From: an uncultured Bacteroidota bacterium
GTDB taxonomy: Bacteria; Bacteroidota; Bacteroidia; 2-12-FULL-35-15
Direction: 5' to 3'
Assembly (NCBI GenBank): GCA_903919535.1
Contig: CAIXIP010000081.1
Coordinates: forward strand, 1 to 60,822
Length of the DNA: 60,822 bases
Position 1 is the first letter of the stretch. The number at the start of each line of letters is the position of its first letter. The position numbers were made by a program, and so were the translations under genes. The notes beneath the pieces were generated by a model. That model saw only the letters and a program-made list of their open reading frames with translations, had not been told where the DNA came from and ran no database searches. Positions 33,410 to 58,552 of the stretch are shown here, piece after piece.

Positions 33410-36400
33410 TTAGTTATTCAGCATCAATCTTAAGCTAACTCCGGCATTAGTGTTAGTGGAAGGGAATGATGATGAAATAACAGGTTTGTTAATGATGCGA
33501 TCATAAAATACACGAATATTGATACGTTCGCTAATCACATAATCTGCCGCTACTTTTATCGAAATAATATTTGTTCCGCCAGTTGATTGACTTACACCTT
33601 CAACAATTCGTCTCATAACTGTTTCATTTTTACGGAATGAAAGATCAAGTTTCAAATTCAGATCGCTTTTGATTTGTTTTCCTTTTATTGTTATTTTTTT
33701 ACCCATTGATAAATTCTTTATGCGGTATCCGGTTCCACCAATTATCTCCCGACCAACCACTTCTGTAACTGTTCGGCTAGTCAAACCAAGGGACAAGTTT
33801 CTATCCTTTTTGTATTCAAAAGTTAATAAAATACTGTTATTTAAAGTCATATCCAGTTTTATCAAAGGGCTCCACTGTTCTGAAATGGTAATTGTGTTAA
33901 TAGCGTTTTGAGATAAAAAATTAGGGTTGCCGGTAATACTTGAAACTGTTTCCTTTATTGCAGTAAATCCATCTTTATTTCCATTTGCATCTTCGTCAAT
34001 AAATAAAAGATTTGACTGGTATCCTCCAACACTGTATGTCGAACGGTAAGCATGACTCAACGTAAATGATTTGAAATATTTTTTTATTGCCTCAATTTTT
34101 GATAATCCATCATAAGTTGCTCTCCAGTTTGGTAACGGAATTTTCGGGAAGGCACTTAAGGTTGAGTTGTTTGTATTCTTCCCTGCATAAGCTGCTAAGA
34201 ATGCTGGAATCAATACATCTTGTGATGTGGCGTTATATCCGTCTGCAAAACCGTTAATAGATCCGTTTGAATTCGGATTTTTTGCACCTAATCGAGCAGA
34301 AATATTAGCCCTGTCATCTAAAAATGTTTGAAATGTTTTCTCTCTATCTTTTACAAAAGAGGTGCGAAACGCCATATACGACATGCTAAAATTACCAGTT
34401 GTGATTGGTGATTGTCCTTTAAAATGATCAACTACGGAACCGTCTCTCAGTGTGTCATTTAGTGTCCATCTAAAAAATTCGCTATTGTTTTTTGCTTCAG
34501 TTCGGGTTGCCGTTAATTCAATTTTAAGATCAGGCAAAGGTTCTAAATTTGCACGGATATTCAAGTTGTTACTACTTGTTGTTGCATAGGGAGTATTTAC
34601 GGAAGGTGTTTTTACTAACCAGTCGTTATTTGGATTATTATCTTCTGTAGTTGCGATTGCTTGATCACGGATATCTTTTTGGCTACCAAAAATAAAACCA
34701 GCTGTTGGCCCTTGAAAATTACTTCCCATTCCCATTAAATGCGTTGATTGAGCATAACCAGGTAATATGGTTCCATTTGTCATGGAGTAGGTTGCAGTAA
34801 CATTTTTCGCGCTCATCAATATGCGGGCAAGGTATTCAAGTACCACGTAATTGTTTTCTTTTTCCTTTTTTGTAGTATCTTTTTGATTTTTAGGAGCAGA
34901 GTTTTTTAATGCTGTAATAGATTTTCCTGTTTTTGTGTTTTGCTGATTTTTATTGCTGCTTTTTTGATTTATTTTTTTCAAATAAGGTACTTTATTATAT
35001 AAGGTCACCATATTTAACTGTCCGTTCAATTGTATGTTACGTGAATTTTGAATCGTATTTCCCAATGTGTCGGCTCCCATCGGAGCTCTCTGCCAGCTGT
35101 AAGTGCCAGAGTAACGAACAGAAGCCGTTGTGAAGTCAAGCAATGGCAATTTATTAATAGGAATATTGTAATTAATATTTACCTGATGATTGTATTGAGT
35201 TGTGTTTCCCAGTTTCAGTAAATTGTTTTGAATTGTATCTTTCTTTTCTTTGGTATCAATTAAACCGGCTGGTTCTAAGATGCGGTTTTCGTTATTTGCA
35301 GTAAAATCGAGCTTTAATGATTTGGTGATATCATATTTAAAATCATAAGAACGATTCATACTAAAATGTTTATTGTAGGTAGGAACAATAAGCATATCAC
35401 CACCTGTAGTGTTCCTGTTTTTTGTTTCGCTGAAATCTCTTGCTACGTCTGTCGAAAAGCCTAATTTATTTGGCAATAAATAAAAGTTAACATCCTTAAT
35501 TAATTGTAAATATTTTGATTGGAAAATTTTTGTTTTTGCGAACGGTTTATAGTTTTTCGGTGTTGGTGCAAAATTATACATCAAGCCGCCATGATGATTT
35601 TTTTGATTGGCGTATTCAAGAGTCGAATTATGATGATTTAACTCACTGTATGAATATGATGCAGCCCAATTTTCCACGTCATAAACATGGCTCTTTTTCG
35701 AGTTTTTTCCTTTGTCTTTTTTTACATTCGTAAAATTGATGCTATTCCGTTTTGTATAATCCTGTGTCACTTGTTTTAATGAATCTCTTACATGTTTAGG
35801 AATAGTAGGGTCTTTTAATGTCGGAGCTAAAAGAATATCCGGATCAAGAGGATTGTATTGTGGTGTGATCAATTGTTCTGAGTAGCCAATATACATTGGA
35901 ACGTGAATGTTAGATTCCTTAGGTAAAAACTTTCCTAATTCTAAACTTGATGAAATGTCATATTGTTTTCCTGTTTCTTTTTTTCGTTCTGTGATTTTAT
36001 TTTCAATGCTACCAAAACCTGGAGTATACATACTTCCTGATACAGAAAGTGTTCCTAAATCTGCTAATTTTGCAGTTACTCGTGCATTTGCTGCCCATCC
36101 GCCTTTTTCATCGAAATCACTTAAACGTAATTCGTTTACCCAAATCTGAGCACATTTTGGTAACCCGTCATCATCAAGTCCTGGGCCCATCTTTTTAGGG
36201 TTTTTAATCCCAATCATGATAGTTTTGATAGCACTTAAATTAGGATTTCCTTTTACAACAATAGTTCTGCTGTCGTCCGAAACCTCATATTCAGAGGCAA
36301 GTGTTACACCTGATCCATTGAAAATATCAATGTTTCGTTTTTGTTTTGCATTTTGTAATTTTTCAAACTCCAATATCATTTCATTAGCTAATGGCCATAC

Positions 36401-39400
36401 TTTATATTGGTCGTCAAGGTTGCTACCATTGTAATTTCCGGGTGCTGTAATTTGTAAGGGAATTTCATATTCGTAATAGTTATCTGTATAATCAGTTCCT
36501 AAACGAATAAAAAGTTTTAGGTCATTATTGTTTAATATTTCATTCACATTTGCTGATGCTTCAGCATGAACATACATTTTTAATTTTTTATATGAGCGAA
36601 CATCCAGACTAGTGTTTTTATATGCTGCGCGAGATTTACCATCTTCTAAATTACAAACAGTGAGCGACATTGCTTGTTCATTCATTTGAATTAAATTAGC
36701 AGATGCAGCGTTAATCTCCCGTTCAATATTTGGCGGTAAAACATAATTGACAGGTTGTTTACTGCCGTTTTCTTCAATGTTTACTGCTGATATATCGAAT
36801 TGAGTATTCGCATCATCATTAGGAATATATAATCCTGGCTCTAAAAGGTCAAAACCGTATTTACGCCATTCGCCACGCACCAATTCAAGTTTAGCAAAAC
36901 GCAAAATAATTGGCTTGTCAACATTTTTATAAAACATCCGGATAAAGCGTATCGATTGAAAATTTTCGATTGGACCCACTTTTGATTCTGGTGTTTTTAA
37001 AGGAATTTTAAACTGATACCAGGTGATTGGTTTTGAGGTTCCATCCTTAATATTTTGACCTGTAGTGTGAAAAACATCAGTGATATAATTGCTTCCAACG
37101 CCACCTGCAAAATCACTTGGTTTTAATCCGATGTGATATTGAAAATAACTCTCAACAGTACTTAAATTGTTATCGTGGTTGATATCTTCAGTGTTCGGAA
37201 TAGTAGTAGATGAAGTAGGGTAATTTCCCGAAGTAATAGGGGAATTACCTTCCATGCCATTATACTTTTTATAACGTTCCAGTGTTTTTACTCCAGCAGC
37301 ATCGTAATCACTTCCTCTGAAATAATGAAAGTCGTCAGCGGAAGGGTCTCCGTTAATATTTGCAAAGACATTAGGAGTAACTATAAGTTGAGCTTTTGCT
37401 AAAAAACTATTGAAATAACTTTGTTCACCACCTAAATTTAATCCATCTAATCCAATATCTTGAGAGGGTCTATCATTTGGGTCACTGTTAAATGCATTTA
37501 CTAATGATTGTGTTGTAGGAATTAAACCCCAAACGGTACTGTCTACAGGAAGATTAAGGCCGTTGTTTTGTGCTTGTGTACTTGGCGCTGGTAAAACATT
37601 TTCAGCGCTTTTATATGAATCACGCAATACGTCTTCAGAAATATTTCCAACATTAAAATATAAATCACCGGTCGAATTCCAGTTTCCTGCCGGATTGTCA
37701 CTATTGAAAGGATCCATCACCCAGAATTGAATATATTCAATGTTTGCAGCTTCAAAATCGTTTGTTTGAACGGATCGAGTGACACCACCCCAGCGGGTTT
37801 CCGGATTCTTTAACGAACCATCAGTTTCTAAACCGGAAGAAATAACTGTAGGGTTTGAATCATAATTGTATGGACCGCGTTCATTTGGATAATACGCCAA
37901 ATCAAGTGTTGCAAGCGGAGTTACCTGCCCACTTTGAGAAGGTTTATTCGGGAAAACTTCAGTTTCAGGGATTTCACGTGCAAAATTGTTTGACATATCT
38001 GCATTGGAAATATTGCCCGGAGTTAAACCAGATGTTTGTCTTAAGAATAAAGGATCAATCACATACCATGCTAATTTTGCGCGGTTAAAACCATACGCTA
38101 AACTGTTTGATGAATCTCCTTCAGGAAACATACTTGGTTGTCCTTGTGGTGTGCTTGCAAGATTCCATGCTGCCTGTGATTTAAGATCAATGGTAGATTG
38201 GCTGCCTTCAAAATCATCAAGATAAGAATTTCCGCTTTTTCCAATTGCTTTGCTGTGACCGGGAATAAGATATGCAAATTCTCCAGCTGCAGTAATTGTA
38301 CTCATTTCCTTAGTTTCGATAAGCGGGATTTTATCTATCCATCGAGTAAGGAAAGGCGCTTCGGTTCTATAATTTCCATCTAATCCCCAAATAGTATTGG
38401 AAATAGGCTCATCCCCAATGTTTACTTTTTTGGTCATTGGACGCTCCGTAAGGTTCATGATGGTTCCGCCAATATTGAAATCTTTATTGATCTTATAATC
38501 AAAATGAGCAGCTGTCAAACGTTTTGTTTGGATTGCAAAAAGTGAATTACTTTCAGTAGAGATCTTGATAGGAGTTCCTGAATTTAAAATCCCTTCATTA
38601 ATAATTTTTACCCGCCCCAAAGCATAATCTACGGTATAATCAACGTTTTCGGTCAGCTGAACTCCTCCCGCAGAAACGGTTACAGAGCCTTGAGGTACAT
38701 TGGGCGCACCTAACGAAATTTCTGAACCTGAAGCTGATTTATATGTTCCTTTTAATTTATAACGATTCACTTGCGGGAACATTTGAGCGGATGTTCGGGT
38801 GGAATCATATAATTGTTGAAATACATATTTATTCGCTTCTGTTGGAGAACAAAGAGGGTCGAATTTTACAAACAGGTCGCTTCCAAAAGGTTCAATAACA
38901 GGAAAAATAACACGTCCGTTATTCGCATTAATGGTAACACCATCAATAAAATCGAAAACCCCATCTGGAGTATGATCCATCTGTTGGTTCAACTTATCCA
39001 AACTAACAACTTGAATTAAAGGTTTTGATATAATTAAATTTTGACAAGAGGTGACCGGTAAATAATTAATATCAGTTCCAGTTTGTGAATTGGTGTATAA
39101 TATATCTAATTTAAAATCTTGTGGATTAATTTGGTAAGCCCCAATTGAATAAATATTTTTCATCATCAAGTCCCACATCGGATGCTTGGTGTTATTAGCA
39201 GAGCTCTTCAGCATCTTTGTATACATTACCTGATTTGTTGCAATGCCACCGTCAGAAAACTCACCTACATTATAGGTGTTCCCATTATAGGTATATTGAT
39301 AAGCAACAGAAAGAACCTGATCTGGATTTAATGTTTGATTCAATGAAATAAAGCCAAGTTTTGAATTCAAGGTATATTCTGAAGGTTGTAATTTTCTGGC

Positions 39401-40753
39401 ATTAAATTTTTCGAAATTAATTTGCTCCTTCATTGTGCTTCCTGAAATTGATTTTATCGTGGAAACACTTGTATTAGGTGTTCTTACAGATGCATTGTTT
39501 TTGATATGGAGATATAGGTCATTTTGATCATTGAATGGCAACGCACCTGCTGTAGCATCCAAAATATAACTCTGGTCAGCAGGTACATGTATTGCATCTT
39601 CTGCAAGTTCTGAAAAGCCAACCATATCACGGGTGTCAGTTGTTGAATTGTTGCTGTTTGAGATCCAGACTTCTATTCTACTGATGTTGATTCCTGAATT
39701 TACAAAAGGCAAATTTGCTAATGCCGAATTATATTGATCACGGAAATACTGCCCAAGAAAAAAATGTTTATTTGCTTCGTATGCATCACCTGCTACTTCA
39801 AAATTACTTACTTGTGCACCCCCCGTAACTTCAACTTCAGATTTTTTCCCTTTTTGTTGTGAAAATAAACTGGTAACAGTCAACCTGCCAAATTGCAATT
39901 GTGTTTTTATTCCAAACAATGTTTGACTACCGGTAATCAATGAACCAGTCAAAGGCATACTCACATTTCCTGCTTCAATTTTTTTGATGATCTCATCTTC
40001 ATAGCCGGTGTACTCCAATTTCATTTGATTTTCAAAATCAAATGTTGCTTCGGTATTATAGCTGGTTGTAAGTTTTAATTTGTCTCCGATTTTTCCAACA
40101 ACATTTAATTGAATTTTTTCGTTAAAATCGAATGTGTTTACTTTACGCTGTTTTAAAGGTAGAGCAGGGTTGTCAGTTTTTGTTCCGTTGTAAGCAAAAA
40201 TTAATTCGGCAGAACCATTCGGTCGAATATCAACTGTATTGCCGCCAAAAATTCGATCAAAAATTTCTCCACCAACATGTAATTTTGGAATAATTGCATT
40301 GCTCTGATTGTTTTGTGATTCGGCATGTGAGCGGGCATTCCAATAATTTTTAACTTGTTTCCTAAACATGTAGTCCTGATATTCCTGACTATCCATATAA
40401 GTTTCCGGGCGATAATTAATTCCACCCATGTGTTGACTTATTTCATAGTTTCCTGTAGTAGGGTCGTATTGAACATCAGTAGCAATGTTAGAAGGGTTAT
40501 TTAACATCAAACCACCTGAATTAGGATAGTTTAATGGGTCACCTGTGGATTGATCTTGAAAATTATAAGGAAGAGTAATGGGTGTTATTTCTTCATCTGT
40601 TTTAGGAGTATCGATAGCAACAAGTGCACGATCTGCTTCCACTTCTTTAGCGAAATTATAGGAACTTATTTTTGCATCAGAATTAATAATGATGCTTAGT
40701 AAGACTGAAGAAACAGCGCCAACAAAAAGATATTTTGAAAATGATCTAGCCAA
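33410..40753 (-). CDS. sprA: T9SS translocon SprA (Sov)
   Basis: 2447 aa; FDRIFGGNTVDIRPNG, FDFENQMKLEY, DDFEGS, WVNELR; between ruvA and gcvH. Confidence 0.96.
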   Translation of the reverse strand: MARSFSKYLFVGAVSSVLLSIIINSDAKISSYNFAKEVEADRALVAIDTPKTDEEITPITLPYNFQDQSTGDPLNYPNSGGLMLNNPSNIATDVQYDPTTGNYEISQHMGGINYRPETYMDSQEYQDYMFRKQVKNYWNARSHAESQNNQSNAIIPKLHVGGEIFDRIFGGNTVDIRPNGSAELIFAYNGTKTDNPALPLKQRKVNTFDFNEKIQLNVVGKIGDKLKLTTSYNTEATFDFENQMKLEYTGYEDEIIKKIEAGNVSMPLTGSLITGSQTLFGIKTQLQFGRLTVTSLFSQQKGKKSEVEVTGGAQVSNFEVAGDAYEANKHFFLGQYFRDQYNSALANLPFVNSGINISRIEVWISNSNNSTTDTRDMVGFSELAEDAIHVPADQSYILDATAGALPFNDQNDLYLHIKNNASVRTPNTSVSTIKSISGSTMKEQINFEKFNARKLQPSEYTLNSKLGFISLNQTLNPDQVLSVAYQYTYNGNTYNVGEFSDGGIATNQVMYTKMLKSSANNTKHPMWDLMMKNIYSIGAYQINPQDFKLDILYTNSQTGTDINYLPVTSCQNLIISKPLIQVVSLDKLNQQMDHTPDGVFDFIDGVTINANNGRVIFPVIEPFGSDLFVKFDPLCSPTEANKYVFQQLYDSTRTSAQMFPQVNRYKLKGTYKSASGSEISLGAPNVPQGSVTVSAGGVQLTENVDYTVDYALGRVKIINEGILNSGTPIKISTESNSLFAIQTKRLTAAHFDYKINKDFNIGGTIMNLTERPMTKKVNIGDEPISNTIWGLDGNYRTEAPFLTRWIDKIPLIETKEMSTITAAGEFAYLIPGHSKAIGKSGNSYLDDFEGSQSTIDLKSQAAWNLASTPQGQPSMFPEGDSSNSLAYGFNRAKLAWYVIDPLFLRQTSGLTPGNISNADMSNNFAREIPETEVFPNKPSQSGQVTPLATLDLAYYPNERGPYNYDSNPTVISSGLETDGSLKNPETRWGGVTRSVQTNDFEAANIEYIQFWVMDPFNSDNPAGNWNSTGDLYFNVGNISEDVLRDSYKSAENVLPAPSTQAQNNGLNLPVDSTVWGLIPTTQSLVNAFNSDPNDRPSQDIGLDGLNLGGEQSYFNSFLAKAQLIVTPNVFANINGDPSADDFHYFRGSDYDAAGVKTLERYKKYNGMEGNSPITSGNYPTSSTTIPNTEDINHDNNLSTVESYFQYHIGLKPSDFAGGVGSNYITDVFHTTGQNIKDGTSKPITWYQFKIPLKTPESKVGPIENFQSIRFIRMFYKNVDKPIILRFAKLELVRGEWRKYGFDLLEPGLYIPNDDANTQFDISAVNIEENGSKQPVNYVLPPNIEREINAASANLIQMNEQAMSLTVCNLEDGKSRAAYKNTSLDVRSYKKLKMYVHAEASANVNEILNNNDLKLFIRLGTDYTDNYYEYEIPLQITAPGNYNGSNLDDQYKVWPLANEMILEFEKLQNAKQKRNIDIFNGSGVTLASEYEVSDDSRTIVVKGNPNLSAIKTIMIGIKNPKKMGPGLDDDGLPKCAQIWVNELRLSDFDEKGGWAANARVTAKLADLGTLSVSGSMYTPGFGSIENKITERKKETGKQYDISSSLELGKFLPKESNIHVPMYIGYSEQLITPQYNPLDPDILLAPTLKDPTIPKHVRDSLKQVTQDYTKRNSINFTNVKKDKGKNSKKSHVYDVENWAASYSYSELNHHNSTLEYANQKNHHGGLMYNFAPTPKNYKPFAKTKIFQSKYLQLIKDVNFYLLPNKLGFSTDVARDFSETKNRNTTGGDMLIVPTYNKHFSMNRSYDFKYDITKSLKLDFTANNENRILEPAGLIDTKEKKDTIQNNLLKLGNTTQYNHQVNINYNIPINKLPLLDFTTASVRYSGTYSWQRAPMGADTLGNTIQNSRNIQLNGQLNMVTLYNKVPYLKKINQKSSNKNQQNTKTGKSITALKNSAPKNQKDTTKKEKENNYVVLEYLARILMSAKNVTATYSMTNGTILPGYAQSTHLMGMGSNFQGPTAGFIFGSQKDIRDQAIATTEDNNPNNDWLVKTPSVNTPYATTSSNNLNIRANLEPLPDLKIELTATRTEAKNNSEFFRWTLNDTLRDGSVVDHFKGQSPITTGNFSMSYMAFRTSFVKDREKTFQTFLDDRANISARLGAKNPNSNGSINGFADGYNATSQDVLIPAFLAAYAGKNTNNSTLSAFPKIPLPNWRATYDGLSKIEAIKKYFKSFTLSHAYRSTYSVGGYQSNLLFIDEDANGNKDGFTAIKETVSSITGNPNFLSQNAINTITISEQWSPLIKLDMTLNNSILLTFEYKKDRNLSLGLTSRTVTEVVGREIIGGTGYRIKNLSMGKKITIKGKQIKSDLNLKLDLSFRKNETVMRRIVEGVSQSTGGTNIISIKVAADYVISERINIRVFYDRIINKPVISSSFPSTNTNAGVSLRLMLNN

Positions 40754-45894: not shown

Positions 45895-46638
45895 TTACTT
45901 CGAGCTAATTACAAGTTTTCTAGTAGATATTGTTTTTCCATCTATTAAAAAAGAATAGAAATAGATACCAGAATTTAAATCAGTGACATTTATTTTTGCT
46001 GTGCCTTGTTTATCAATTAATTCAACTTCTTTTACTGTTTTTCCTAACATGTCATAAAATGTGATTTTCCCGTTTTGTGCAAATTCGTTCAAAATATATT
46101 TGATTGAAACGGTTGAATTTGAAGGGTTAGGATACGCAGTAGAAATTACTCCACTCGCTTTTGCAATATCATTTATTCCGTTAGAACATGAATAATGAAC
46201 TGTTACTGTAGCTGTATCTTGCGCAAAGTATGTTTGATATTTAACATAGGTATCGCAGCAAGATTGACCAACATCAAAATGTGCAACGAGACCTTGAGCT
46301 CCTATTAAATTTGTCATGCCTGCAAGGGTAGTGCCAACACCTGGCTCATCATAAACTGTATTGGTACTTGGAGCATAACAAGATGCACCTGCACAAAAAT
46401 AAACATCACAGCCATTACCTAAAGGCGGGTTTAATACAGTTCTGCGAATGTGATATGTTACAGCAGAAGATGTAATATTGTGAATATCAATATCGTTTTC
46501 GAATAGAGCATTTGAAGTTATATTTACAATAAGGGTATCATTGGTGATGTCTATACCGCCATTATATAGGCGTAAACTTTGCCCAAAACTATATGTTGCT
46601 GCTGAAATTATAATAAGAGTTGTAAGAATTTTTTTCAT
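45895..46638 (-). CDS. Small Cys-containing T9SS type A cargo (possibly PorA-like)
   Basis: Signal peptide MKKILTT (ATG 46638; -7 box TAAATTTG at 46684-46691 covers the track's TTG); YFCAGASCY; CTD YPNP...SGIYFY...RKLVIS. Confidence 0.75.
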   Translation of the reverse strand: MKKILTTLIIISAATYSFGQSLRLYNGGIDITNDTLIVNITSNALFENDIDIHNITSSAVTYHIRRTVLNPPLGNGCDVYFCAGASCYAPSTNTVYDEPGVGTTLAGMTNLIGAQGLVAHFDVGQSCCDTYVKYQTYFAQDTATVTVHYSCSNGINDIAKASGVISTAYPNPSNSTVSIKYILNEFAQNGKITFYDMLGKTVKEVELIDKQGTAKINVTDLNSGIYFYSFLIDGKTISTRKLVISSK

Positions 46639-46760
46639 GTTATTATATTTAAAGGTTTTGTGATATTTTTTATAGCTATACTCCAAATTTACAATATTGT
46701 TTCACTGCATTTTATTTTTTTTGAAAGATTCTTAGTATTCGAACGATTAAACAAAGATGA

Positions 46761-48517: not shown

Positions 48518-50308
48518 ATGAAAAAAACAGTTACCTTATCAATTGCAGTTCTGTCAGCATTAGCGGCTAGTGCTCAATTACCTGTAAGTACGACACCTCA
48601 AAACAAAAAGGCTCTTATTGAAGAGTTTACTGGAATTCATTGTACATATTGCCCTGATGGTCATAAAATATCAGCGCAAATTCTTGCTGCTAATCCAGGT
48701 AATGCATTTGCAGTGAATGTTCACACAGGAAGCTACGCAACTCCAAGTGGAGCTGAATTAGATTTTAGAACAACTGAAGGTGACGCAATTGCAGCAATTT
48801 CTACAATGGGTATCACAGGTTATCCAACAGGCGATGTAAATCGTCATATCTTTACTGGTACAACATTGACAATGAGTCGTGCTGATTGGGCAACTTCAGT
48901 TGCTACAATATTAGGGCAAAGTGCCTATGTGAACATTGCAGGTGAAGCAGTACTTGATGTAAATACAAATCTTTTGACTATTAATATTCAAGCATATTAC
49001 ACTGCTAATAGCCCACAGGCGTCAAACAAACTTACTGTAATGTTAATACAAGATAATATCAACGGTACTCAGACTGGTGCTGCATCATTTAATCCAACTA
49101 TGATTAATCCTGATGGAACTTATCGCCACATGCATGCATTGCGTAAGGTTATTTCTGCAACTACAGGTGATGCAATTTCACCAACAACTGCAGGAACAAC
49201 TATTAACAAAACATATACTTATACTGTTCCGGCAATAATTAAGAATATTCCGGTTGATGTTTCTAATCTTGAATTAATTGCTTTTGTTGGGGAATCAACA
49301 AATGCTGAAATTATTAACGTTGGAAAACTTCCAATAACTTATACTGGAATTACTACAACAAACAATGCAGCAGCAAGCTCACTAAGTGTTGAGAACAATG
49401 TTTGTCAAAGTTCAACTATACCAACTTTTATATTAAAAAATAAAGGTTCTGCTACTATGACAAGTGCTTCAATAAGCTATTCTGTTAATGGTGGAACAGC
49501 GCAAGTATACAACTGGACTGGTTCATTAACTTCGTTGGGTTCAACAACAGTAACTTTGCCTGTTATTAACTTTACATTAAACCCAACAAATACAGTAAAT
49601 CTTTCAGTTCTAACAGTAAATGGTATTGCTGATCAAGATGCAACAGATAATGCTGCAACTGCAACATTTATTGAAACAACAACTTTGGTTACAACTAATT
49701 CGATTACAATTGATGTAACTCAAGATCAATACGGTACAGAAACAACATGGAAGCTTTTTGATGCTTCTGGTTCAATAATCGCTAGTGGTGGACCATACGC
49801 AGATTTAGCTGCTTCTGGAGTTCTATTGCATACATCTACTGCTACATTGCCTATTGATGGATGTTATCGCTTCGAAATATATGATGTTTATGGTGATGGA
49901 ATTAATTCTGGTTATGGTGCAGGAAAAGTAGAATTGAAAAATGCATCTGGAACTATTTTTTATTCACTTGTTGGTACTGCAGCTAATTTTGGAAGTAAAG
50001 GAGTGCGTAACTTTAAAAAAGGTCCACTTTCAATTAGCGAAAACGAACTTGTTAATAATGTGAATGTTTATCCAAATCCAATATCAACGAATGCAACTGT
50101 TAACTTCAATTTAGTTGAATCAAACAATGTTGTTATTGAAGTGGTAAATGCAATCGGACAATTAGTTTCAACAAATAACTTAGGTAAATTAAGTATTGGT
50201 GAACAAAATTATTCAATAGATGCTTCTAACCTAAACAATGGTTTATATTTCATAAACATTCGTGTAGGAGACAAAAGTGTTGTTAGAAAAGTTTCTATCA
50301 GTAAATAG
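48518..50308 (+). CDS. Omp28-related protein (CxxC) with T9SS type A CTD
   Basis: IEEFTGIHCTYCPDGH, GYPTG.VNR, HMHALR; CTD VYPNP...NGLYFI...RKVSI. Confidence 0.88.
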   Translation: MKKTVTLSIAVLSALAASAQLPVSTTPQNKKALIEEFTGIHCTYCPDGHKISAQILAANPGNAFAVNVHTGSYATPSGAELDFRTTEGDAIAAISTMGITGYPTGDVNRHIFTGTTLTMSRADWATSVATILGQSAYVNIAGEAVLDVNTNLLTINIQAYYTANSPQASNKLTVMLIQDNINGTQTGAASFNPTMINPDGTYRHMHALRKVISATTGDAISPTTAGTTINKTYTYTVPAIIKNIPVDVSNLELIAFVGESTNAEIINVGKLPITYTGITTTNNAAASSLSVENNVCQSSTIPTFILKNKGSATMTSASISYSVNGGTAQVYNWTGSLTSLGSTTVTLPVINFTLNPTNTVNLSVLTVNGIADQDATDNAATATFIETTTLVTTNSITIDVTQDQYGTETTWKLFDASGSIIASGGPYADLAASGVLLHTSTATLPIDGCYRFEIYDVYGDGINSGYGAGKVELKNASGTIFYSLVGTAANFGSKGVRNFKKGPLSISENELVNNVNVYPNPISTNATVNFNLVESNNVVIEVVNAIGQLVSTNNLGKLSIGEQNYSIDASNLNNGLYFINIRVGDKSVVRKVSISK

Positions 50309-50320
50309 ATCTGTTCTTTG

Positions 50321-50378
50321 AAAATAAATCAGCAGTTTGGCTTGTTGTTTGACAAATCACTGCTGATTTATTTTTTTT
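50321..50378 (+). terminator. Rho-independent terminator
   Basis: 16-bp IR 50321-50336/50359-50374 followed by T-run. Confidence 0.8.
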
Positions 50379-50400
50379 AACTAATTTTAAAAAACATTTT

Positions 50401-50922
50401 ATGAAAAAAATAGTACTGGGTTTATTCATAATTGGAGCATTAGCTTCCGCAACAATCATCCAAAATTCAGAAGGACGGTCCATTCCTGCTGCAGATGTAA
50501 AAACGCTTGATGGAAAAACTATTAATACTTCCAAATTTTCGAATGACGGTAAGCCGATGATCATTGATTTTTGGGCTACCTGGTGTAAGCCATGTAAAAA
50601 AGAATTAGATGCTATCTCAGAAGTATATGGTGAATGGCAAAAAGAAACGGGTGTGAAATTAATTGCAATTTCAATTGATGATTCACGTAGCTCCGGTAGG
50701 GTTTCTGCTGACGCAAAAACACATGGCTGGGAATATGAAGTTTATCTTGACGAGAATCAAGATTTTAAACGCGCCCTTAATGTTGGCGACATTCCTCAGG
50801 TATTTATCATTAACGGAAAAGGCGAAATTGTTTGGCAACACAACGGATATGTTGATGGTGGAGAAGAGCATATTTTCGAGATCCTGAAAAAGGTTGTTAA
50901 AGGAGAAAAAATAACTGAATAA
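50401..50922 (+). CDS. TlpA family thiol-disulfide oxidoreductase
   Basis: Signal peptide; DFWATWCKPCKKE; IP motif. Confidence 0.92.
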   Translation: MKKIVLGLFIIGALASATIIQNSEGRSIPAADVKTLDGKTINTSKFSNDGKPMIIDFWATWCKPCKKELDAISEVYGEWQKETGVKLIAISIDDSRSSGRVSADAKTHGWEYEVYLDENQDFKRALNVGDIPQVFIINGKGEIVWQHNGYVDGGEEHIFEILKKVVKGEKITE

Positions 50923-50932
50923 TTAGAAAAAT

Positions 50933-52609
50933 TTGCTCATTGTGAGAAAAAATAAATTAGGATTAATCAACGCATCTGCAATTTTATTTGCAGTATTCTA
51001 CAGCAACTTTTCAGTTGCACAATTAAATTTAAACACAATCAATAACCTTAATTTGGGTGAAGTGCATGGCAATTTTCAAGCTAATGCACAATATTATATT
51101 CCCGATTCAACGATTGGTGCTGCTGACGTTCCTGAAAAAATGTTGTTGAATGGCTTCGCAAATATTATTTATACGAAAGGGAAATTTACTGCTGGTATTC
51201 GATACGAAAGTTATTTAAATGCTTTGCAAGGATATCCTACGGGATATAAAGGAAACGGAATTCCTTATCGTTATGCAACCTATAAATCAGATGAGTTAGA
51301 GGTTACGGTTGGTAGCTTTTATGAGCAATTTGGAAATGGCTTAACATTGAGAAGTTATGAAGAACGAAATTTAGGATTAGATAACGCACTTGATGGAGCA
51401 AGATTAAAATATCAACCATTTAAAGGTGTTTATTTAAAAGCATTGGTAGGTAAACAACGTACTTACTTCACTACTGCCGGTTTAGTTCGCGGCTTTGATG
51501 GAGAAATTCAAATCAATGAAGCTTTTGCGAAACTAAAAGATAAAAAAACAGTTGTAACCTTGGGTGGAAGTTTTGTAAGTAAATTTCAAACGGATGCAGA
51601 TCCAACCTTGGTATTACCACAAAATGTTGGAAATTCAGCTGGAAGATTTGAAATCACAAGAAATAATTTCAGAATTAACGGAGAATACGCATACAAAATT
51701 AACGACCCTTCTTCTGATAATAATTTTATTTATAAATATGGTGATGCAGCGCTTTTGCAAGCAAGTTATGCTATGAAAGGATTTGCATTGTCTGTAAGCG
51801 GGTCTCGTATTGATAATATGAGTTATCGTTCAGACCGAACAGCTCAAATAACTAATTTGTTGATTAATTATATTCCCGCTTTACCAAAACAGCATACGTA
51901 TTGCTTATTGGCATTTTATCCATATGCTTCGCAATCTAAAGGGGAAATGGAGTTTTCAAGTGAGATAAAATATAAAATTAAAAAAGGGACTGCATTAGGC
52001 GGTGCTTATGGAACAGAGATCACCGTGAATTATTCGGGTGCTAATAGCCTTGATACAACTCAAATAAAAGGAACAGATACAAAACATTTAGGGTATTCAT
52101 CCAATTATTTAGGTGTAGGAAAAGAAATTTACTTCCGAGATCTTTACATTGAAATATCAAAAAAGATAAACAAAACCTGGAAAGGAACATTGGTTTATTC
52201 TAATCAGATCTATAACAAATCCATTATTCAAAAACCCGGTTCGCCAACAATTTATTCCAACATAATAATTGCTGATATTACTTATAAATTAAAAGCTACA
52301 AGTTCATTGCGATTGGAATTACAAAATTTACAAACTAAGCAGGATCATCAGGATTGGGCTTATGCTCTTTTAGAATATACTATCAATGAAAATTGGTTTA
52401 TTGCGGCAGGCGATCTATACAATTATGGAAATGAAGAAAGTGCTAAGCGTTACCATTATTATATGGGTAATATCGGATATATGAAAAATACAAATCGTAT
52501 AACGTTAAGTTATGGTAAACAGCGTGAAGGCATATTTTGTGTTGGCGGAGTTTGCCGCAATGTACCTGCTTCAAATGGTATAACACTTTCAGTTTCCAGT
52601 AGTTTCTAA
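50933..52609 (+). CDS. DUF6029-like outer-membrane beta-barrel
   Basis: VGSFYEQFGNGLTLRSYEER.LG.DN; C-terminal GIFCVGGVCRNVPASNG; terminal Phe (start may be GTG 50942). Confidence 0.78.
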   Translation: MLIVRKNKLGLINASAILFAVFYSNFSVAQLNLNTINNLNLGEVHGNFQANAQYYIPDSTIGAADVPEKMLLNGFANIIYTKGKFTAGIRYESYLNALQGYPTGYKGNGIPYRYATYKSDELEVTVGSFYEQFGNGLTLRSYEERNLGLDNALDGARLKYQPFKGVYLKALVGKQRTYFTTAGLVRGFDGEIQINEAFAKLKDKKTVVTLGGSFVSKFQTDADPTLVLPQNVGNSAGRFEITRNNFRINGEYAYKINDPSSDNNFIYKYGDAALLQASYAMKGFALSVSGSRIDNMSYRSDRTAQITNLLINYIPALPKQHTYCLLAFYPYASQSKGEMEFSSEIKYKIKKGTALGGAYGTEITVNYSGANSLDTTQIKGTDTKHLGYSSNYLGVGKEIYFRDLYIEISKKINKTWKGTLVYSNQIYNKSIIQKPGSPTIYSNIIIADITYKLKATSSLRLELQNLQTKQDHQDWAYALLEYTINENWFIAAGDLYNYGNEESAKRYHYYMGNIGYMKNTNRITLSYGKQREGIFCVGGVCRNVPASNGITLSVSSSF

Positions 52610-52625
52610 TTTATAAAAATAGATA

Positions 52626-53522
52626 ATGAAAATTAAATTTATTTCAACTATCGTAATCGGATTCGCTTTATTGATATCATCATGTGATTTTGTATCTATT
52701 CCCGCACAGGGAACCGTTGGCCCAACCGGCCCAACTGGTGTGGTAGATAGTACAGTGCATCGTAAGGTCTTATTGGAAGATTATACCGGACATAAATGTA
52801 CTGCATGTCCTGCTGCTGCCATTACAGCAAATTCAATTGTATTAGCCAATCCCGAAAAAGTAATTGTTATTGGAGTTCATGCAGGTTTTTTTGCTAATGC
52901 AATGACAACAGGAACACAATACTTGACAGATTTTAAAACTGCAGCAGGAACTGCTTATGATACCTATTTTGGAATTTCTGCAGTTGCAAATCCGAATGGA
53001 TTAATAAACAGAAAAGATTATACTTCTAGTACAACAAACCATATTAAATCTCCAGGAACTTGGGCTACCGAAGTTGCAATAGAATTAGCAAAACCACCAT
53101 TGGCAAAACTGGAAATTGTAAATAGCTACAATTCAGGACCCCGGGTTTTAACCTGCAATGTAAATTCTACTTTTTTGCAGGATACATTAACTGGAGGGCC
53201 ATACAAACTTATAGTTTCAGTGCTACAGGATTCTATCATAGCCGATCAACTTGATGCTGGTGTGTATGTGCCAGCATATGTTCACAGACATGTGTTGAGA
53301 GATAATATCAACGGTACCTGGGGCGATAATTTAGTAAACGCAGGGTCAATTATTACAAATTCTGTAATCAATAAAAATTACAATTATACTTTTCCTGCAA
53401 CGTATCCAGCTGCTGGTGCTAGCTCAACAAGTTGCGATGTAAATCATTGTTACATTGTTGCATATATTTATAATGATGTTACTAAAGAGGTAATTCAAGT
53501 AGAGGAGAAGAAAATACAATAG
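52626..53522 (+). CDS. Omp28 family lipoprotein (CxxC)
   Basis: Lipobox ISSC; KVLLEDYTGHKCTACP, NPNGLINR, YVHRHVLR. Confidence 0.88.
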   Translation: MKIKFISTIVIGFALLISSCDFVSIPAQGTVGPTGPTGVVDSTVHRKVLLEDYTGHKCTACPAAAITANSIVLANPEKVIVIGVHAGFFANAMTTGTQYLTDFKTAAGTAYDTYFGISAVANPNGLINRKDYTSSTTNHIKSPGTWATEVAIELAKPPLAKLEIVNSYNSGPRVLTCNVNSTFLQDTLTGGPYKLIVSVLQDSIIADQLDAGVYVPAYVHRHVLRDNINGTWGDNLVNAGSIITNSVINKNYNYTFPATYPAAGASSTSCDVNHCYIVAYIYNDVTKEVIQVEEKKIQ

Positions 53523-53544
53523 AAAATTGATCATTATCAACAAG

Positions 53545-53574
53545 AATGCACCAAAGCAATAACTTTGGTGCATT
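53545..53574 (+). terminator. Hairpin terminator
   Basis: Perfect 12-bp stem aatgcaccaaag/ctttggtgcatt. Confidence 0.65.
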
Positions 53575-53598
53575 TGTATTTTATTACCTTTGTAATAC

Positions 53599-54219
53599 AT
53601 GAGAAAATTAATTTTAATAGCTGTCATATTTTTATTTTTCGTTACCGGAATAAAGGCGCAACAGCGCTTTAAAGTAGGATTGAAAGCTGGGTTAAGCACA
53701 AGTCAGGTAGCAGGTGATACCTATAGCGGATATCACAAAGCAGGTTTTGATGGAGGAGGATTCGTTACCGGAAAGTTAAGCGAAAAGTGGAGCGCCCAAT
53801 TTGAAATAATTTATATTCAAAAAGGAAGCAAGCAAAATCAAAATCCTGAAAAGGGCATGTTTAATTTTTATTTTTTGCAACTAGATTATATTGAAGTGCC
53901 GGTGTTGTTTCAGTTTCATCAGAAAAAATTCACATTTGAAGCTGGTCCCGGATTTGGCTATCTGGTAAAGGAAAGGGAGTATAATGATTACGGAGAAATA
54001 ACAGGAGCTCGCCCTTTTTTTAAAACAGAAGCAAGTTTTAATTTAGGCATAAGTTATAAAATATATAAAAATTTGGGAATGAACTGGCGATATTGTAATT
54101 CATTTTTGGCAATTCGCAAACACGCTTCAGGTGCCAGCACATGGTATAATCCAGGACAAATAAATAATGTGTTGGCTTTTACATTAACATATCAATTTGG
54201 AAATAATGAATCAGAATAA
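53599..54219 (+). CDS. Outer-membrane beta-barrel (porin/PorT-like family)
   Basis: GLKAG, EIIYIQKG, LDYIEVPV, terminal LTYQF; -7 box TACCTTTG 6 nt upstream. Confidence 0.8.
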   Translation: MRKLILIAVIFLFFVTGIKAQQRFKVGLKAGLSTSQVAGDTYSGYHKAGFDGGGFVTGKLSEKWSAQFEIIYIQKGSKQNQNPEKGMFNFYFLQLDYIEVPVLFQFHQKKFTFEAGPGFGYLVKEREYNDYGEITGARPFFKTEASFNLGISYKIYKNLGMNWRYCNSFLAIRKHASGASTWYNPGQINNVLAFTLTYQFGNNESE

Positions 54220-54781
54220 ACATAAAGTTGTTGTAGCTATTACCGGAGCAAGTGGAGCGGTTTATGCAAAAGTGTTGCTTGATAAATTAAATGAATTACA
54301 CGAACAAATTGAAGCTGTTGGTGTTGTGATGAGTGACAATGCAAAAGATGTTTGGAAATTTGAACTTGGAAATTCTGATTATGAAAAATCGAAATTTAAA
54401 ATTTACACGAAAAATGATTTCTTTGCACCCTTCGCATCAGGTTCTTCTAAATACGATACTATGATTGTTTGCCCTTGTTCCATGGGTACATTGGCGCGTA
54501 TTGCAAGTGGTGTTTCAAATGACTTGACAACCCGTGCTGCTGATGTTATTTTAAAGGAAAGAAGAAAACTTATTTTAGTGACACGTGATACTCCTCTAAG
54601 TTTAATTCATATTAATAATATGAAAACAGTTACAGAGGCCGGTGGAATTATTTGTCCTGCAAGCCCTTCCTTTTATAGTAAACCACAAACAATCGAAATG
54701 CTTGCAGCTACTGTAATTGATCGTGTTCTTGACTTGTGTGGTTTTGATCAGAATTCGTTTAGATGGGGAGCCGAAAAATAA
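54206..54781 (+). CDS. ubiX: Flavin prenyltransferase UbiX
   Basis: AITGASG, ASGS, PCSMGTL, RAADVILKERRKL, P..PSFY; ATG 54206 preferred. Confidence 0.93.
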   Translation: MNQNKHKVVVAITGASGAVYAKVLLDKLNELHEQIEAVGVVMSDNAKDVWKFELGNSDYEKSKFKIYTKNDFFAPFASGSSKYDTMIVCPCSMGTLARIASGVSNDLTTRAADVILKERRKLILVTRDTPLSLIHINNMKTVTEAGGIICPASPSFYSKPQTIEMLAATVIDRVLDLCGFDQNSFRWGAEK

Positions 54782-56163: not shown

Positions 56164-56263
56164 CCACTAATTTGCAAATCACCTCCATTCACCAACCAAA
56201 TTCCACCGTATAATAAGTTTAGATCTCCAGTTAGTATAATGATGAGTACAAGAATTACATTTG
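56164..56263 (+). promoter_or_regulatory. Four 21-bp-phased CC[AG] repeats plus -7 box TACATTTG
   Basis: CCACTAATT 56164, CCATTCACC 56185, CCGTATAAT 56206, CCAGTTAGT 56227; -7 box 56256-56263. Confidence 0.4.
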
Positions 56264-56293
56264 ACAAGGTATTCATCTAAAAAACTATGGATT

Positions 56294-58552
56294 ATGAAAA
56301 CAAAAATTACTCTTCTGACACTTATCGTTGTTTTAAATTTTGTTTCAAAAGCGCAAACATTTGTAACAATACCTGACTCGCAGTTTGCAGCTTGGCTACA
56401 AGCGAATATACCTTCTGCAATGAATGGCAACCTGATGGATACAAGTAATTTGGCTGTTACAACAAGAACTTCAATAGTAGTTGAACGAGACTCTATTATG
56501 GATTTAAGCGGAATTCAATATTTTCATTCTCTAATAACATTAAATTTTGGTAATGGTAATTATTCTTCTATAAACAATTCATTAACGAGTTTGCCAACTT
56601 TACCTGAATCACTCGATACATTAATTTGCAACTTCAATCATCTAACAAGTTTTCCCACTTTGCCAAGCACACTTAAATATTTAGACTGTTCTTATAATTA
56701 TTTAACGCCTCTGCCTAATTTACCCAACTCCCTTATAACACTGATATGTTATAGTAATCAGTTTTGGAGTCTTCCTTCTTTGCCAAGTTCTCTCTCCTAT
56801 TTAGATTGCTCGCTGAATTTATTAAACAATTTACCTGCTTTACCCAATTCGCTTTTGACTTTACGTTGTCAAGGTTGTGATCTGTCCGCGCTTCCTACTT
56901 TGCCTAATGCACTCCAGGTTTTAGATTGTTCAATGAATCAGATAACAAGCCTGCCGGCACTGCCTAATACACTTCAATATTTAGAATGTTCAAATAATGG
57001 TCTTTTTTGTTACCCTACATTTCCAAGTTCTCTGATTTATATTTCTATTTCTAATCCGGCCAACTGCTTACCAAATTACGTTGCTGCAATGGATGCCGCA
57101 ACTTTATCAAACCCGTTATGTGTTGATGGGGATTTAACAAATAACCCCAATGGTTGTTCAAGTGGCAAAGGTATTGTTGGTACTATTTTCGAAGACGATA
57201 ATAGCAATTGTATTATGGATTTGACAGATCATCGAATTGCGAATGTCCATTTATCATTATATGATACTAATGATAATCTTATTGCTCAAACGTATTCGTT
57301 ACAAAATGGGTATTATTCCTTTCTGGATACAGCAGGTATCTATACAGTAAAAATGGATACCGTAGCTATGCCATTTAATGTGCAATGTGTTTATCCGGGA
57401 ATTGATTCTGCCATAACACTTACTTCTATTGATCCAATGGTAAGTAATGTAAATTTTAATATTACTTGCAAACCAGGTTTTGATATTGGAGTTCAATCTG
57501 TTATTCCGATAGGAGCAATATTCCCGGGACAACAGCATAAATTAAAAATTATTTCAGGAGAAATTAGCAATTGGTATAATTTGCATTGTGCAACAGGAAT
57601 TAGTGGCCAGGTAGAAGTTACGGTAACGGGTCCTGTACACTTTGATAGTATTGTCTCAGGCGCAACTACTCCTTCTATTCTGGGCAATGTGTTTACATAC
57701 AGTGTCGCAGATTTTGGTGTCATAAATAATTCTCATGATTTCGGTTTGTTATTTACAACCGACACGTCAGCGCAAACTGGTGAAAAAGTTTGCATAAATG
57801 TAAATGTTACACCTACCAATGGTGATATCGATATCTTAAACAATAATTATCAGTTTTGCTATCAGGTAAGCAATTCTTTCGATCCAAATTTAAAGGAGGT
57901 TTACCCTATAGATGTTTTACCCGGATACCAAGATTATTTTACTTATACTATCCATTTTCAAAATACAGGAAACGCACCAGCAATGAACATTCGTTTAGTG
58001 GATGTGTTAAATAATAATTTGGATTTATCTACTTTTCAGGTAATCAATTACAGCCATTATAATATCACATCTTTAAATGGCAATGTTCTGACCTTTCGTT
58101 TTCCAAATATTCAATTACCCGATAGTTTAATTGATTCCAATGGGTCTATAGGTTTTGTTCAATATAGAATTAAACCAAAATCGGGTTTAATAAACGGAAC
58201 ACAAATACAAAACACAGCGAATATTTATTTTGATTATAACTCTCCAATAACTACAAATACAACTGTGAACACATTTACAAGTGCTGCAAATGTGCCGAAT
58301 TTAAGTAGTACAGATAACGCTACGCTCATTGCCCCTAACCCCTTTACTGATATAACTACCATTACATTTACTCAGGAACAAAAAAACTCTACCATTAAAA
58401 TAATGGATGTTTTAGGCAAAGAAATAAGAGTAATAATTTTTACAGGCAAACAATTGGTAATAGAAAAAGGGGAAATGATAGCAGGGATATATTTTTTTCA
58501 GGTAGCTGATACAAATGGAAATGTGGTAAATAAAAAAATAGTGATTCAGTAA
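56294..58552 (+). CDS. Leucine-rich-repeat protein with SdrD-like/DUF7619-like domains and T9SS type A CTD
   Basis: Signal peptide MKTKITLL; 20-aa LPX LRRs; SFDPN.K, YTIHFQNTG, ANIYFDYN.PI.TN; CTD APNPF...GIYF...KKIVIQ. Confidence 0.85.
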   Translation: MKTKITLLTLIVVLNFVSKAQTFVTIPDSQFAAWLQANIPSAMNGNLMDTSNLAVTTRTSIVVERDSIMDLSGIQYFHSLITLNFGNGNYSSINNSLTSLPTLPESLDTLICNFNHLTSFPTLPSTLKYLDCSYNYLTPLPNLPNSLITLICYSNQFWSLPSLPSSLSYLDCSLNLLNNLPALPNSLLTLRCQGCDLSALPTLPNALQVLDCSMNQITSLPALPNTLQYLECSNNGLFCYPTFPSSLIYISISNPANCLPNYVAAMDAATLSNPLCVDGDLTNNPNGCSSGKGIVGTIFEDDNSNCIMDLTDHRIANVHLSLYDTNDNLIAQTYSLQNGYYSFLDTAGIYTVKMDTVAMPFNVQCVYPGIDSAITLTSIDPMVSNVNFNITCKPGFDIGVQSVIPIGAIFPGQQHKLKIISGEISNWYNLHCATGISGQVEVTVTGPVHFDSIVSGATTPSILGNVFTYSVADFGVINNSHDFGLLFTTDTSAQTGEKVCINVNVTPTNGDIDILNNNYQFCYQVSNSFDPNLKEVYPIDVLPGYQDYFTYTIHFQNTGNAPAMNIRLVDVLNNNLDLSTFQVINYSHYNITSLNGNVLTFRFPNIQLPDSLIDSNGSIGFVQYRIKPKSGLINGTQIQNTANIYFDYNSPITTNTTVNTFTSAANVPNLSSTDNATLIAPNPFTDITTITFTQEQKNSTIKIMDVLGKEIRVIIFTGKQLVIEKGEMIAGIYFFQVADTNGNVVNKKIVIQ
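56582..57061 (+). repeat. Eight 20-aa (60-bp) bacterial LPX-type LRRs
   Basis: LxxLPxLPxxLxxLxCxxNx x8. Confidence 0.85.

Follow-up and report, generated by a model that had tools for sequence, protein, structure and literature searches.

A three-gene cluster encoding a TlpA-like thioredoxin-fold reductase, a large outer membrane β-barrel of the DUF6029 family, and an Omp28-family lipoprotein was characterized in a contig of an uncultured Bacteroidota bacterium (CAIXIP010000081.1; the whole stretch of 60,822 nt is referred to here as the window, and all coordinates are positions in it). This arrangement is far beyond chance: in most of 130 loci examined in other genomes, the genes are likewise adjacent and carry these cysteine motifs. 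On balance, and with modest confidence, we consider it probable that the trio forms a thiol-redox module centered on the outer membrane, in which TlpA, working at or by way of a complex of the barrel with the lipoprotein, would set the redox state of thioredoxin folds located in the outer membrane or at the cell surface. A first-pass annotation of this DNA had proposed a dedicated thiol-redox set built around an outer membrane barrel, and this proposal is supported by the conserved adjacency and by the cysteine motifs. The maintenance of the trio across Bacteroidota points to a cysteine chemistry at the outer membrane that has so far not been described.

Gene organization and conservation of the trio

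The window contains four open reading frames (ORFs) on the plus strand that each carry a dithiol motif, as originally annotated: CTYC, WCKPC, CVGGVC, and CTAC. The gene order given in the title of that annotation was incorrect. The first gene encodes an Omp28-related protein with a type IX secretion system (T9SS) C-terminal sorting domain (CTD), here called Omp28-CTD, and it is followed by the genes for TlpA, the barrel, and the Omp28 lipoprotein (Table 1). The intergenic gaps are 92, 10, and 16 nt, so that the short spacing reported for the last three genes is correct. The 92-nt gap holds a terminator-like hairpin with a minimum free energy of −24 kcal/mol (z −4.5), a value equalled by 0 of 200 shuffled sequences; its long loop caused it to be overlooked by a consensus terminator scan, which did retrieve a hairpin downstream of the lipoprotein gene. 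Since terminator-like hairpins flank the TlpA, barrel, and lipoprotein genes, these probably form a three-gene operon, with the Omp28-CTD gene as a transcription unit of its own. A scan for the sigma-70 consensus returned 33 sites for 28.5 expected and was uninformative, as expected for Bacteroidota.

The conservation of this arrangement was assessed in three sets of loci, with the proteins of the window as the only queries for neighboring genes. For the phylum sample, 401 genomes were scanned with the Pfam model PF19494, which found the barrel in 104; the 30 best of the resulting loci, including the window and one from a genome of the same genus, were taken with 1.5-kb flanks and searched with the window's four proteins. 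The second set comprises the 80 closest loci named, with 6-kb flanks, and the third is a nonrandom set of 20 hand-picked distant loci from other families with weak barrel matches. In the phylum loci, the gene directly upstream of the barrel gene is TlpA-like in 24/30, the one directly downstream is Omp28-like in 22 of the 29 that have enough flank, and both flank the barrel in 16/29; the motif C[VI]GG[VI]C is present in all 30 barrels. Adjacency is tighter in the closest loci, where TlpA is upstream in 73/77, Omp28 is downstream in 73/75, and both are in place in 68/72. Only six of these 80 loci fail the strict barrel motif, five of them reading CAGGVC and one having a broken barrel ORF. The distant loci agree: a gene for a WCxxC TlpA-like protein abuts the barrel gene in 20/20 (divergently in 3), the barrel has C-x4-C in 20/20, and in 15/20 there is an adjacent gene for a further exported protein with CxxC. 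The first-pass annotation had named conservation of the barrel motif and of the gene neighborhood as checks of its proposal. The recurrence of the trio in all three sets of loci answers the second of these, and the first is answered by a wider alignment of barrels, in which C-x4-C is kept in 126/127.

The identity of the third partner is not fixed. In one lineage (loci L111 to L116), the barrel is shorter (∼510 residues) and carries the motif CTSGIC, and Omp28 is replaced 3′ of the barrel by a ResA-like thioredoxin, sometimes duplicated, with the motif CPHC. The dipeptide in CPHC is of the DsbA type. What is constant across the loci is therefore a reductase, a barrel, and a second thioredoxin fold, and no single family.

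Properties of the three proteins

The TlpA-like protein has WCKPC at residues 61 to 65 (window 50581-50595), which holds its only two cysteines. It scores above the cutoffs of the AhpC-TSA, Redoxin, and Thioredoxin_8 families and below the curated cutoffs for ResA (86.8 versus 170), StoA (67.9 versus 210), DsbE (54.9 versus 123), and rhizobial TlpA (46.5 versus 230). The closest solved relative is 2m72, an uncharacterized thioredoxin-like protein (E value of 4e-50, with the runner-up at 1e-17). By sequence, the window TlpA thus belongs to a separate subfamily, of which 2m72 is the closest solved member. The L111 TlpA was considered as the protein of structure 2m72 and ruled out, as it matches 2m72 less well than the window TlpA does. 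A signal peptide of the signal peptidase I (SPase I) type is visible in the window TlpA, and among its orthologues 94 have an SPase I signal peptide and 1 has a lipobox-like site. A DsbD-type membrane domain that could feed this protein is encoded by a DsbD_TM gene elsewhere in the same genome. TlpA is presumably a soluble exported protein that is kept reduced by this DsbD.

The barrel matches PF19494 over positions 15 to 538 of the 538 in the profile, with 605.4 bits for a cutoff of 27. Its CVGGVC motif occupies residues 536 to 541 (window 52538-52555), 17 residues before the terminal F558. Conservation was measured in alignment A1, which contains 127 barrels: the window protein, 6 closer proteins, and 120 of 150 listed representatives at 50% identity (those that look full length; fragments were removed). 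C536 is conserved at 0.99 and C541 in every sequence; the motif reads C.GG.C in 122/127, and the single protein that departs from C-x4-C is the homologue P0241, a barrel that has no first cysteine of the pair. There is no other cysteine after residue 35 in 86/127 barrels, and F558 is conserved at 0.94.

The AlphaFold2 model of the barrel has a predicted local distance difference test score (pLDDT) of 94.8 and a predicted template modeling score (pTM) of 0.89. Residues 43 to 558 consist only of strands and loops, with no plug or extra domain, and the wall has ∼24 strands when counted from the strands and turns of the model. An exhaustive structural comparison gave the ushers FimD (Z score of 18.2, 366 residues aligned) and PapC (Z 17.1) as the best matches, followed by 18-strand porins (Z 15.5), Wzi (Z 12.4), and MtrB (Z 12.0). 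The cysteines lie in a hairpin formed by residues 533 to 537 and 540 to 544 around G538-G539, which is inserted between the wall strands 521 to 530 and 547 to 557. Judged by strand parity from the secondary structure, rather than from coordinates, this hairpin would end at the extracellular rim, with its tip directed back toward the lumen.

The conservation of the barrel is distributed unevenly. The strands have a mean of 0.49, nine of the loops lie at 0.18 to 0.49, and the long loop 295 to 336 is at 0.56. These values are exceeded by loop 130 to 152 (0.73) and by the cysteine hairpin (0.64 to 0.98), which as a whole is the best-conserved stretch of the protein (GG 0.98, R542 0.96, P545 0.98). 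Because loop 130 to 152 and the hairpin outscore the strands, which is unusual for an outer membrane protein, the pattern suggests a conserved site inside the barrel and not a passive pore. No DsbD-related family matched the barrel in the family-model scans. The literature found that names DUF6029 is limited to work on polysaccharide export (PMC9603273), where, in the portion of the paper available, a role in polysaccharide secretion is suggested from the HHpred similarity of plug-less Wzi-like barrels.

The third protein has the lipobox LISSC, with the lipid-bearing cysteine at position 20, and CTACP at residues 58 to 62 (window 52797-52811). Its Pfam Omp28 (PF11551) score is 79.3 for a cutoff of 34.9, and it falls just under the cutoff of the NCBIfam model NF033782 (148.7 versus 150). 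In alignment A2, which holds 66 lipoproteins after 22 ORFs were left out at start finding together with 4 wrong starts and 1 duplicate of the window, the residues C20, T54, C58, C61, P62, P123, R225, and G233 are invariant (66/66). P123 would correspond to the cis-proline position of thioredoxins. The model (pLDDT 90.3) comprises a low-confidence tether at about residues 26 to 39, a β-α-β unit in which helix 61 to 74 starts at the CxxC, and a C-terminal β-sandwich. The best Foldseek match is HBP35 (5y1a; E value of 6.7e-12, TMq 0.64), which covers both domains over 266 columns; 2axo, a thioredoxin-like protein, and 2r2c, an Omp28 domain, rank next. The A2 profile matches 2r2c at 1.6e-31, HBP35 5y1a at 5.1e-7, and plain thioredoxins from 1.4e-4. 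In the match to HBP35, the CxxC of the lipoprotein aligns with the active-site CGYC, in agreement with the earlier assignment of a thioredoxin fold to surface-type Omp28 proteins. According to the part of the source available (PMC2907840), recombinant HBP35 has thioredoxin activity in vitro that is lost when both putative active-site cysteines are mutated; a modified form is found on the cell surface, and the protein binds hemin and is required for growth under hemin limitation.

The four proteins had been assigned to separate locations. The lipoprotein status of the last Omp28 holds, given its lipobox at Cys20, and the side of the membrane that it faces is only partly predictable. The signal for lipoprotein export in Bacteroidota is given as C-X-K-(D/E)2, SDDDD, or SDDFE in the accessible part of PMC5080379. 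The relatives of the window protein mostly read CD[KV][IV][DE]xP after the lipid cysteine; the K at +3 agrees with this signal and the hydrophobic residue at +4 does not, so that the fit is partial. The regularity of the stretch CD[KV][IV][DE]xP[YI] in A2 exceeds what a general export signal would require, and the stretch could be a motif for recognition or docking that is specific to this family. Co-folding of the barrel (residues 30 to 558, with A1) with the lipoprotein (residues 20 to 298, with A2), run twice without controls, scored 0.00 each time, where the mark is 0.32, and is neutral on binding.

Neighboring genes and the relation to type IX secretion

Table 1. Features of the locus and its surroundings, as positions in the window.
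Feature	Coordinates	Strand	Details
SprA	33410-40753	-	TIGR04189, 2636 bits
PorA-like small T9SS cargo protein	45895-46686	-	Por_Secre_tail; family alignment A3
BT2802-family-like protein, 508 aa	46761-48287	-	145.7 bits vs cutoff 550, full length
Omp28-related protein with T9SS type-A CTD (Omp28-CTD)	48518-50308	+	596 aa; Pfam Omp28 81 bits, Por_Secre_tail 49 bits
Terminator-like RNA hairpin, then U-run	50320-50375	+	between Omp28-CTD gene and TlpA gene
TlpA/ResA-like exported thioredoxin-fold reductase	50401-50922	+	173 aa; AhpC-TSA, Redoxin, Thioredoxin_8
DUF6029 outer membrane β-barrel	50933-52609	+	558 aa; PF19494 605 bits
Omp28-family lipoprotein	52626-53522	+	298 aa; Pfam Omp28 79 bits
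Terminator-like hairpin, 13-bp stem	53544-53575	+	3′ of lipoprotein gene; terminator consensus scan
Small outer membrane β-barrel, OMP_b-brl_2, TDE1717-like	53599-54219	+	family model matches
UbiX flavin prenyltransferase	54197-54781	+	3′ of small barrel

Omp28-CTD carries its CTYC at residues 42 to 45 (window 48641-48652), and its sorting domain is recognized by TIGR04183 (40 bits versus 23) and by PF18962 (49.4 versus 27). Large CTD-bearing relatives stand beside the trio in 28 of the 80 closest loci; they amount to 32 ORFs, of which 24 have CxxC in the first 220 residues. The type of CxxC in these CTD-anchored neighbors varies (CTYCP, CGPC, WCGPC). Both Omp28 proteins of the window match the NCBIfam model for an Omp28-related selenoprotein around the CxxC, weakly and far below its cutoff (E values of 5.8e-9 and 1.3e-6), and no literature linking Omp28 with selenoproteins was found. 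A third Omp28-family protein is encoded in the same genome, away from the locus (G000 contig C181:14119-14664, a 684-residue open frame).

The PorA-like gene probably starts at Met17 (46638), which would give a protein of ∼247 residues. It combines an N-terminal immunoglobulin-like (Ig-like) domain, which has a cysteine pair at C98/C103 (97/102 in A3), with a type-A CTD that scores 47.4 and 54 bits. The cysteine pair is invariant in the A3 family. The A3 profile matches the N-terminal domain of Porphyromonas gingivalis PorA (6kjk, residues 28 to 171) with an E value of 3.2e-5 and 26.6 bits, placing FCW..CY on the CFGQC of PorA. The window protein is, at the level of sequence profiles, a predicted homologue of PorA, and the family spans many Bacteroidota metagenome-assembled genomes and accompanies the trio. 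Many of the closest loci have a relative of it next to the trio, and 43 of 50 matches span both the N-terminal domain and the CTD; about half of the 80 loci lack the gene, which is usually divergent. The PorA-like gene and the module are separated by the gene for the BT2802-like protein, and locus L032 is arranged likewise.

Consecutive locus tags in P. gingivalis correspond to PorA (PG2172), Omp28 (PG2173), an uncharacterized vesicle protein (PG2174), and a thioredoxin-domain protein (PG2175), as listed in the available parts of PMC13744359 and PMC4335976, and this series is consistent with its being the same module. PorA regulates the expression of the T9SS through PorXY-SigP, and its BLAST homologues were reported only in Porphyromonas, according to the part of PMC7712824 available. 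The available text of the PorA papers (PMC7712824 and PMC12152298) makes no mention of an operon, of Omp28, or of upstream genes. In the literature found, most of what is retrieved for Omp28, PG2173, and PGN_0124 concerns the unrelated Omp28 of Brucella, and, in the excerpts available, PG2174, PG2175, PGN_0125, and PGN_0126 appear only as table rows and porA is the only one of PG2172 to PG2175 with a studied function.

The first-pass annotation had suggested that the pathway could fold or repair Cys-rich T9SS cargo and had pointed to SprA in the same window. SprA is indeed encoded there, and it carries no weight as support, as it lies ∼8 kb away behind metabolic genes. Such a role for T9SS cargo in general is weakened by the distribution of the barrel across genomes. 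The CTD model was used phylum-wide; TIGR03513 (GldL) recognizes only the window's own class and was used within it. There is no barrel match in 209 of 313 CTD-positive genomes, nor in 78 of 98 GldL-positive genomes of the window's class, counts that depend on a Pfam model that may miss very divergent barrels. Because most CTD- and GldL-positive genomes have no barrel match, the module is not a general requirement for T9SS cargo. All 104 barrel-positive genomes (104/104) belong to families in which every sampled member has type-A CTD proteins, and the families that have no CTD proteins (0/87 and 0/1) also have no barrel; these represent about one lineage, so this is a weak sign of dependence.

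Downstream of the trio, a small barrel is found in 27 and UbiX in 19 of the 80 closest loci; in the window, these two genes share an overlap of 23 nt. Other T9SS-related genes occur farther away. The protein encoded at 56261-58552 (+) is a type-A T9SS cargo protein with N-terminal leucine-rich repeats; its match to the repeat parts of NCBIfam SspH2/SlrP (100 bits versus a cutoff of 1243) is a resemblance of the repeats only. Two adjacent "choice-of-anchor L" proteins with type-B T9SS sorting domains (TIGR04131) are encoded at 11849-14014 and 14019-16646 (+).

Proposed role, competing explanations, and known systems

The mechanism that we propose would begin with a soluble periplasmic reductase of the TlpA type, presumably kept reduced by the DsbD of the genome. 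TlpA would work with a plug-less barrel of about 24 strands, whose most conserved features are the Cys-x4-Cys hairpin and one loop of the inward type. The third partner would be a thioredoxin-fold lipoprotein of the Omp28/HBP35 type anchored in the same membrane. Barrel and lipoprotein would form a complex, and the wide lumen of the barrel would let the reductase reach thioredoxin folds in the outer membrane or at the surface. The proposed clients are the lipoprotein, the CTD-anchored Omp28, and the PorA-like protein, whose cysteine pairs would be held in a working redox state. The complex, the facing of the lipoprotein, the direction of electron flow, the part played by the barrel cysteines, and the final substrate are elements of this scheme that we infer.

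Several observations weigh against this scheme. The link drawn here between TlpA, the barrel, and the lipoprotein is one of gene adjacency. Some loci of the phylum sample do not have the full trio: one family has Omp28 after the barrel and no TlpA within 1.5 kb, and other families have TlpA but no Omp28 downstream of the barrel. TlpA paralogues are numerous in Bacteroidota, and a TlpA gene beside that of a membrane protein is not rare in itself. A weaker point is that no fusion of TlpA with the barrel was seen, PF19494 being absent from the 10 longer TlpA relatives found. The cysteines of the barrel's C-x4-C lie on either side of a turn made of two glycines, an arrangement that is classic for disulfides acting as structural staples. 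The window lipoprotein reads CDFVSIP after its lipid cysteine, a poor match to the signal for surface export. Finally, the four cysteines of PorA itself are reported, in the part of PMC12152298 available, not to be involved in activation or signaling.

A stronger version of the proposal, in which the barrel would carry reducing power across the outer membrane as a thiol counterpart of MtrCAB, and would recharge surface thioredoxin folds via its lumen or its cysteine hairpin, appears unlikely to us, if still worth considering. We regard as somewhat more doubtful the explanation in which the cysteine pair of the barrel is itself the redox relay, an outer membrane counterpart of DsbD, with TlpA reducing the hairpin and the hairpin reducing the surface thioredoxin folds. 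The pair is near-invariant (126/127) and is the only one in 86/127 barrels, it sits in the best-conserved stretch of the protein, and a reductase gene stands beside the barrel in 20/20 distant loci; a hairpin running from the extracellular rim toward the lumen, as predicted from the model, could moreover be reachable from both sides. The same C-x4-C over a tight GG turn nevertheless resembles a structural staple, the homologue P0241 has no first cysteine, and neither the wall nor a loop of a β-barrel is known to harbor a redox-active disulfide. Similarly low credence is given to the barrel as a pore for the export or surface display of the lipoprotein or of PorA-type CTD proteins, with TlpA keeping their cysteines reduced until passage; in P. 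gingivalis, the barrel would then be a T9SS-independent route of PorA to the surface. Folded Ig-like subunits pass through the usher pores of FimD and PapC, and these are the best folds for the barrel (Z 18.2 and 17.1), a likeness that fits the FimH-like domain of PorA. The margin of FimD over porins is small (18.2 versus 15.5), may reflect barrel size only, and concerns a barrel that has neither the plug nor the periplasmic domains of an usher. The conserved CD[KV][IV][DE]xP after the lipid cysteine is what would be expected of a recognition signal, a PorA-like gene stands beside the trio here and in many related loci, and the tags PG2172 to PG2175 are consecutive in the available parts of PMC13744359 and PMC4335976; the absence of the PorA-like gene from about half of the 80 loci and its usually divergent orientation tell against this pore, which also leaves the invariant cysteine pair of the barrel unexplained.

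Two further explanations assign the barrel a role in transport of small molecules or polymers. It could be an uptake channel for an oxidized sulfur, selenium, or metal compound, which the Omp28 proteins would capture and TlpA would reduce, either directly or by acting on the capture proteins. A wide plug-less barrel with conserved charged strand residues (E92, R140, R176, D189, R238, E251, E338, and E481) would suit such a channel, as would the weak matches around the CxxC to a curated Omp28-related selenoprotein family and the binding of hemin by HBP35, which is needed when hemin is scarce (part of PMC2907840). The neighborhood offers no candidate substrate: the examined loci have no conserved inner membrane transporter, TonB box, or substrate-specific enzyme next to the trio, and the genes that recur downstream, the small barrel and UbiX, do so in only 27 and 19 of 80. 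We therefore find uptake quite improbable. Even less probable, if by little, is that the three proteins have no joint function beyond biogenesis, the barrel being a porin or polysaccharide pore with a structural disulfide and TlpA and Omp28 being its private folding helpers or mere neighbors. The suggestion of a role for DUF6029 in polysaccharide secretion (part of PMC9603273) and the presence of Wzi among the fold matches (Z 12.4) speak for it. Genes for polysaccharide export, OPX included, were not seen next to the barrel, a weak point in loci screened only with the window's proteins. More telling is that the WCxxC reductase is adjacent in 20/20 distant loci and that a second thioredoxin fold persists even where its family changes; because of this persistence, chance or a one-off folding need is unlikely.

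No published description of such a module was found, and paywalled papers and supplements could hold more. Known reducing pathways stop in the periplasm, and surface thioredoxin-fold proteins such as HBP35 exist in Bacteroidota. The operon is a concrete, conserved, and genetically tractable candidate for the recycling of cysteine enzymes outside the outer membrane. If a relay across this membrane is real, it would be the first known route that keeps extracellular cysteine enzymes reduced in a diderm bacterium. If there is no relay, the module would still provide the first functional context for DUF6029, a family of unknown function with thousands of members, and the export pore, if true, would answer how PorA bypasses the T9SS. 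The relatives in the periodontal pathogen P. gingivalis, where two of the proteins have solved structures and no known function, make these ideas testable.

The closest known counterparts are the proteins of that organism. Omp28/PG2173 (2r2c) is matched by the lipoprotein profile at 1.6e-31, and PorA/PG2172 (6kjk) by the PorA-like family at 3.2e-5 with the cysteines aligned. The loci differ in that the PorA-like gene of the window is divergent and lies 1.8 kb upstream, with one gene between, instead of ending the operon, and in that the window has an additional CTD-anchored Omp28. HBP35 (5y1a) shares with the lipoprotein a thioredoxin fold followed by a β-sandwich, and with Omp28-CTD the CTD anchor. 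The window lipoprotein is lipid-anchored, not CTD-anchored, and has ∼15% sequence identity to HBP35.

Among barrels, FimD and PapC (3ohn and 2vqi) are the best structural matches, with ∼366 to 371 residues aligned over the whole barrel at 8 to 9% identity; unlike them, the window barrel has no plug and no N- or C-terminal usher domains, and no chaperone or pilin genes lie nearby. The pairing of a wide barrel with a long-tethered outer membrane lipoprotein encoded beside it recalls LptD-LptE and RcsF-OmpA and suggests that the lipoprotein is seated inside the barrel or threaded through it. The pairing in the window is drawn from gene order alone. There is no sequence or specific fold relationship, LptD being a generic barrel match in Foldseek (ranks 24 and 33). 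In MtrCAB of Shewanella (6r2q), the comparison concerns the architecture, as a large plug-less barrel could enclose a redox protein of the periplasm and make contact with a redox lipoprotein at the surface. MtrB ranks ninth in Foldseek and has a Z score of 12.0 in the exhaustive structural comparison, no better than many barrels, and MtrCAB differs in using heme wires instead of thiols and in having no sequence relationship to the module.

The chemistry itself is most similar to that of the pathways that run from DsbD/CcdA to TlpA, ResA, and CcmG, with which the module shares an exported WCxxC reductase, a DsbD-type domain, and the logic of transfer from cysteine pair to cysteine pair. We regard the module as a variant of these periplasmic reducing pathways, which would become a new kind of system if transfer across the outer membrane were shown. 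The final targets of the known pathways are periplasmic (cytochrome c, copper proteins, and sporulation proteins, for example), whereas the conserved partners of the reductase described here are thioredoxin folds and an outer membrane barrel that bears no similarity to DsbD.

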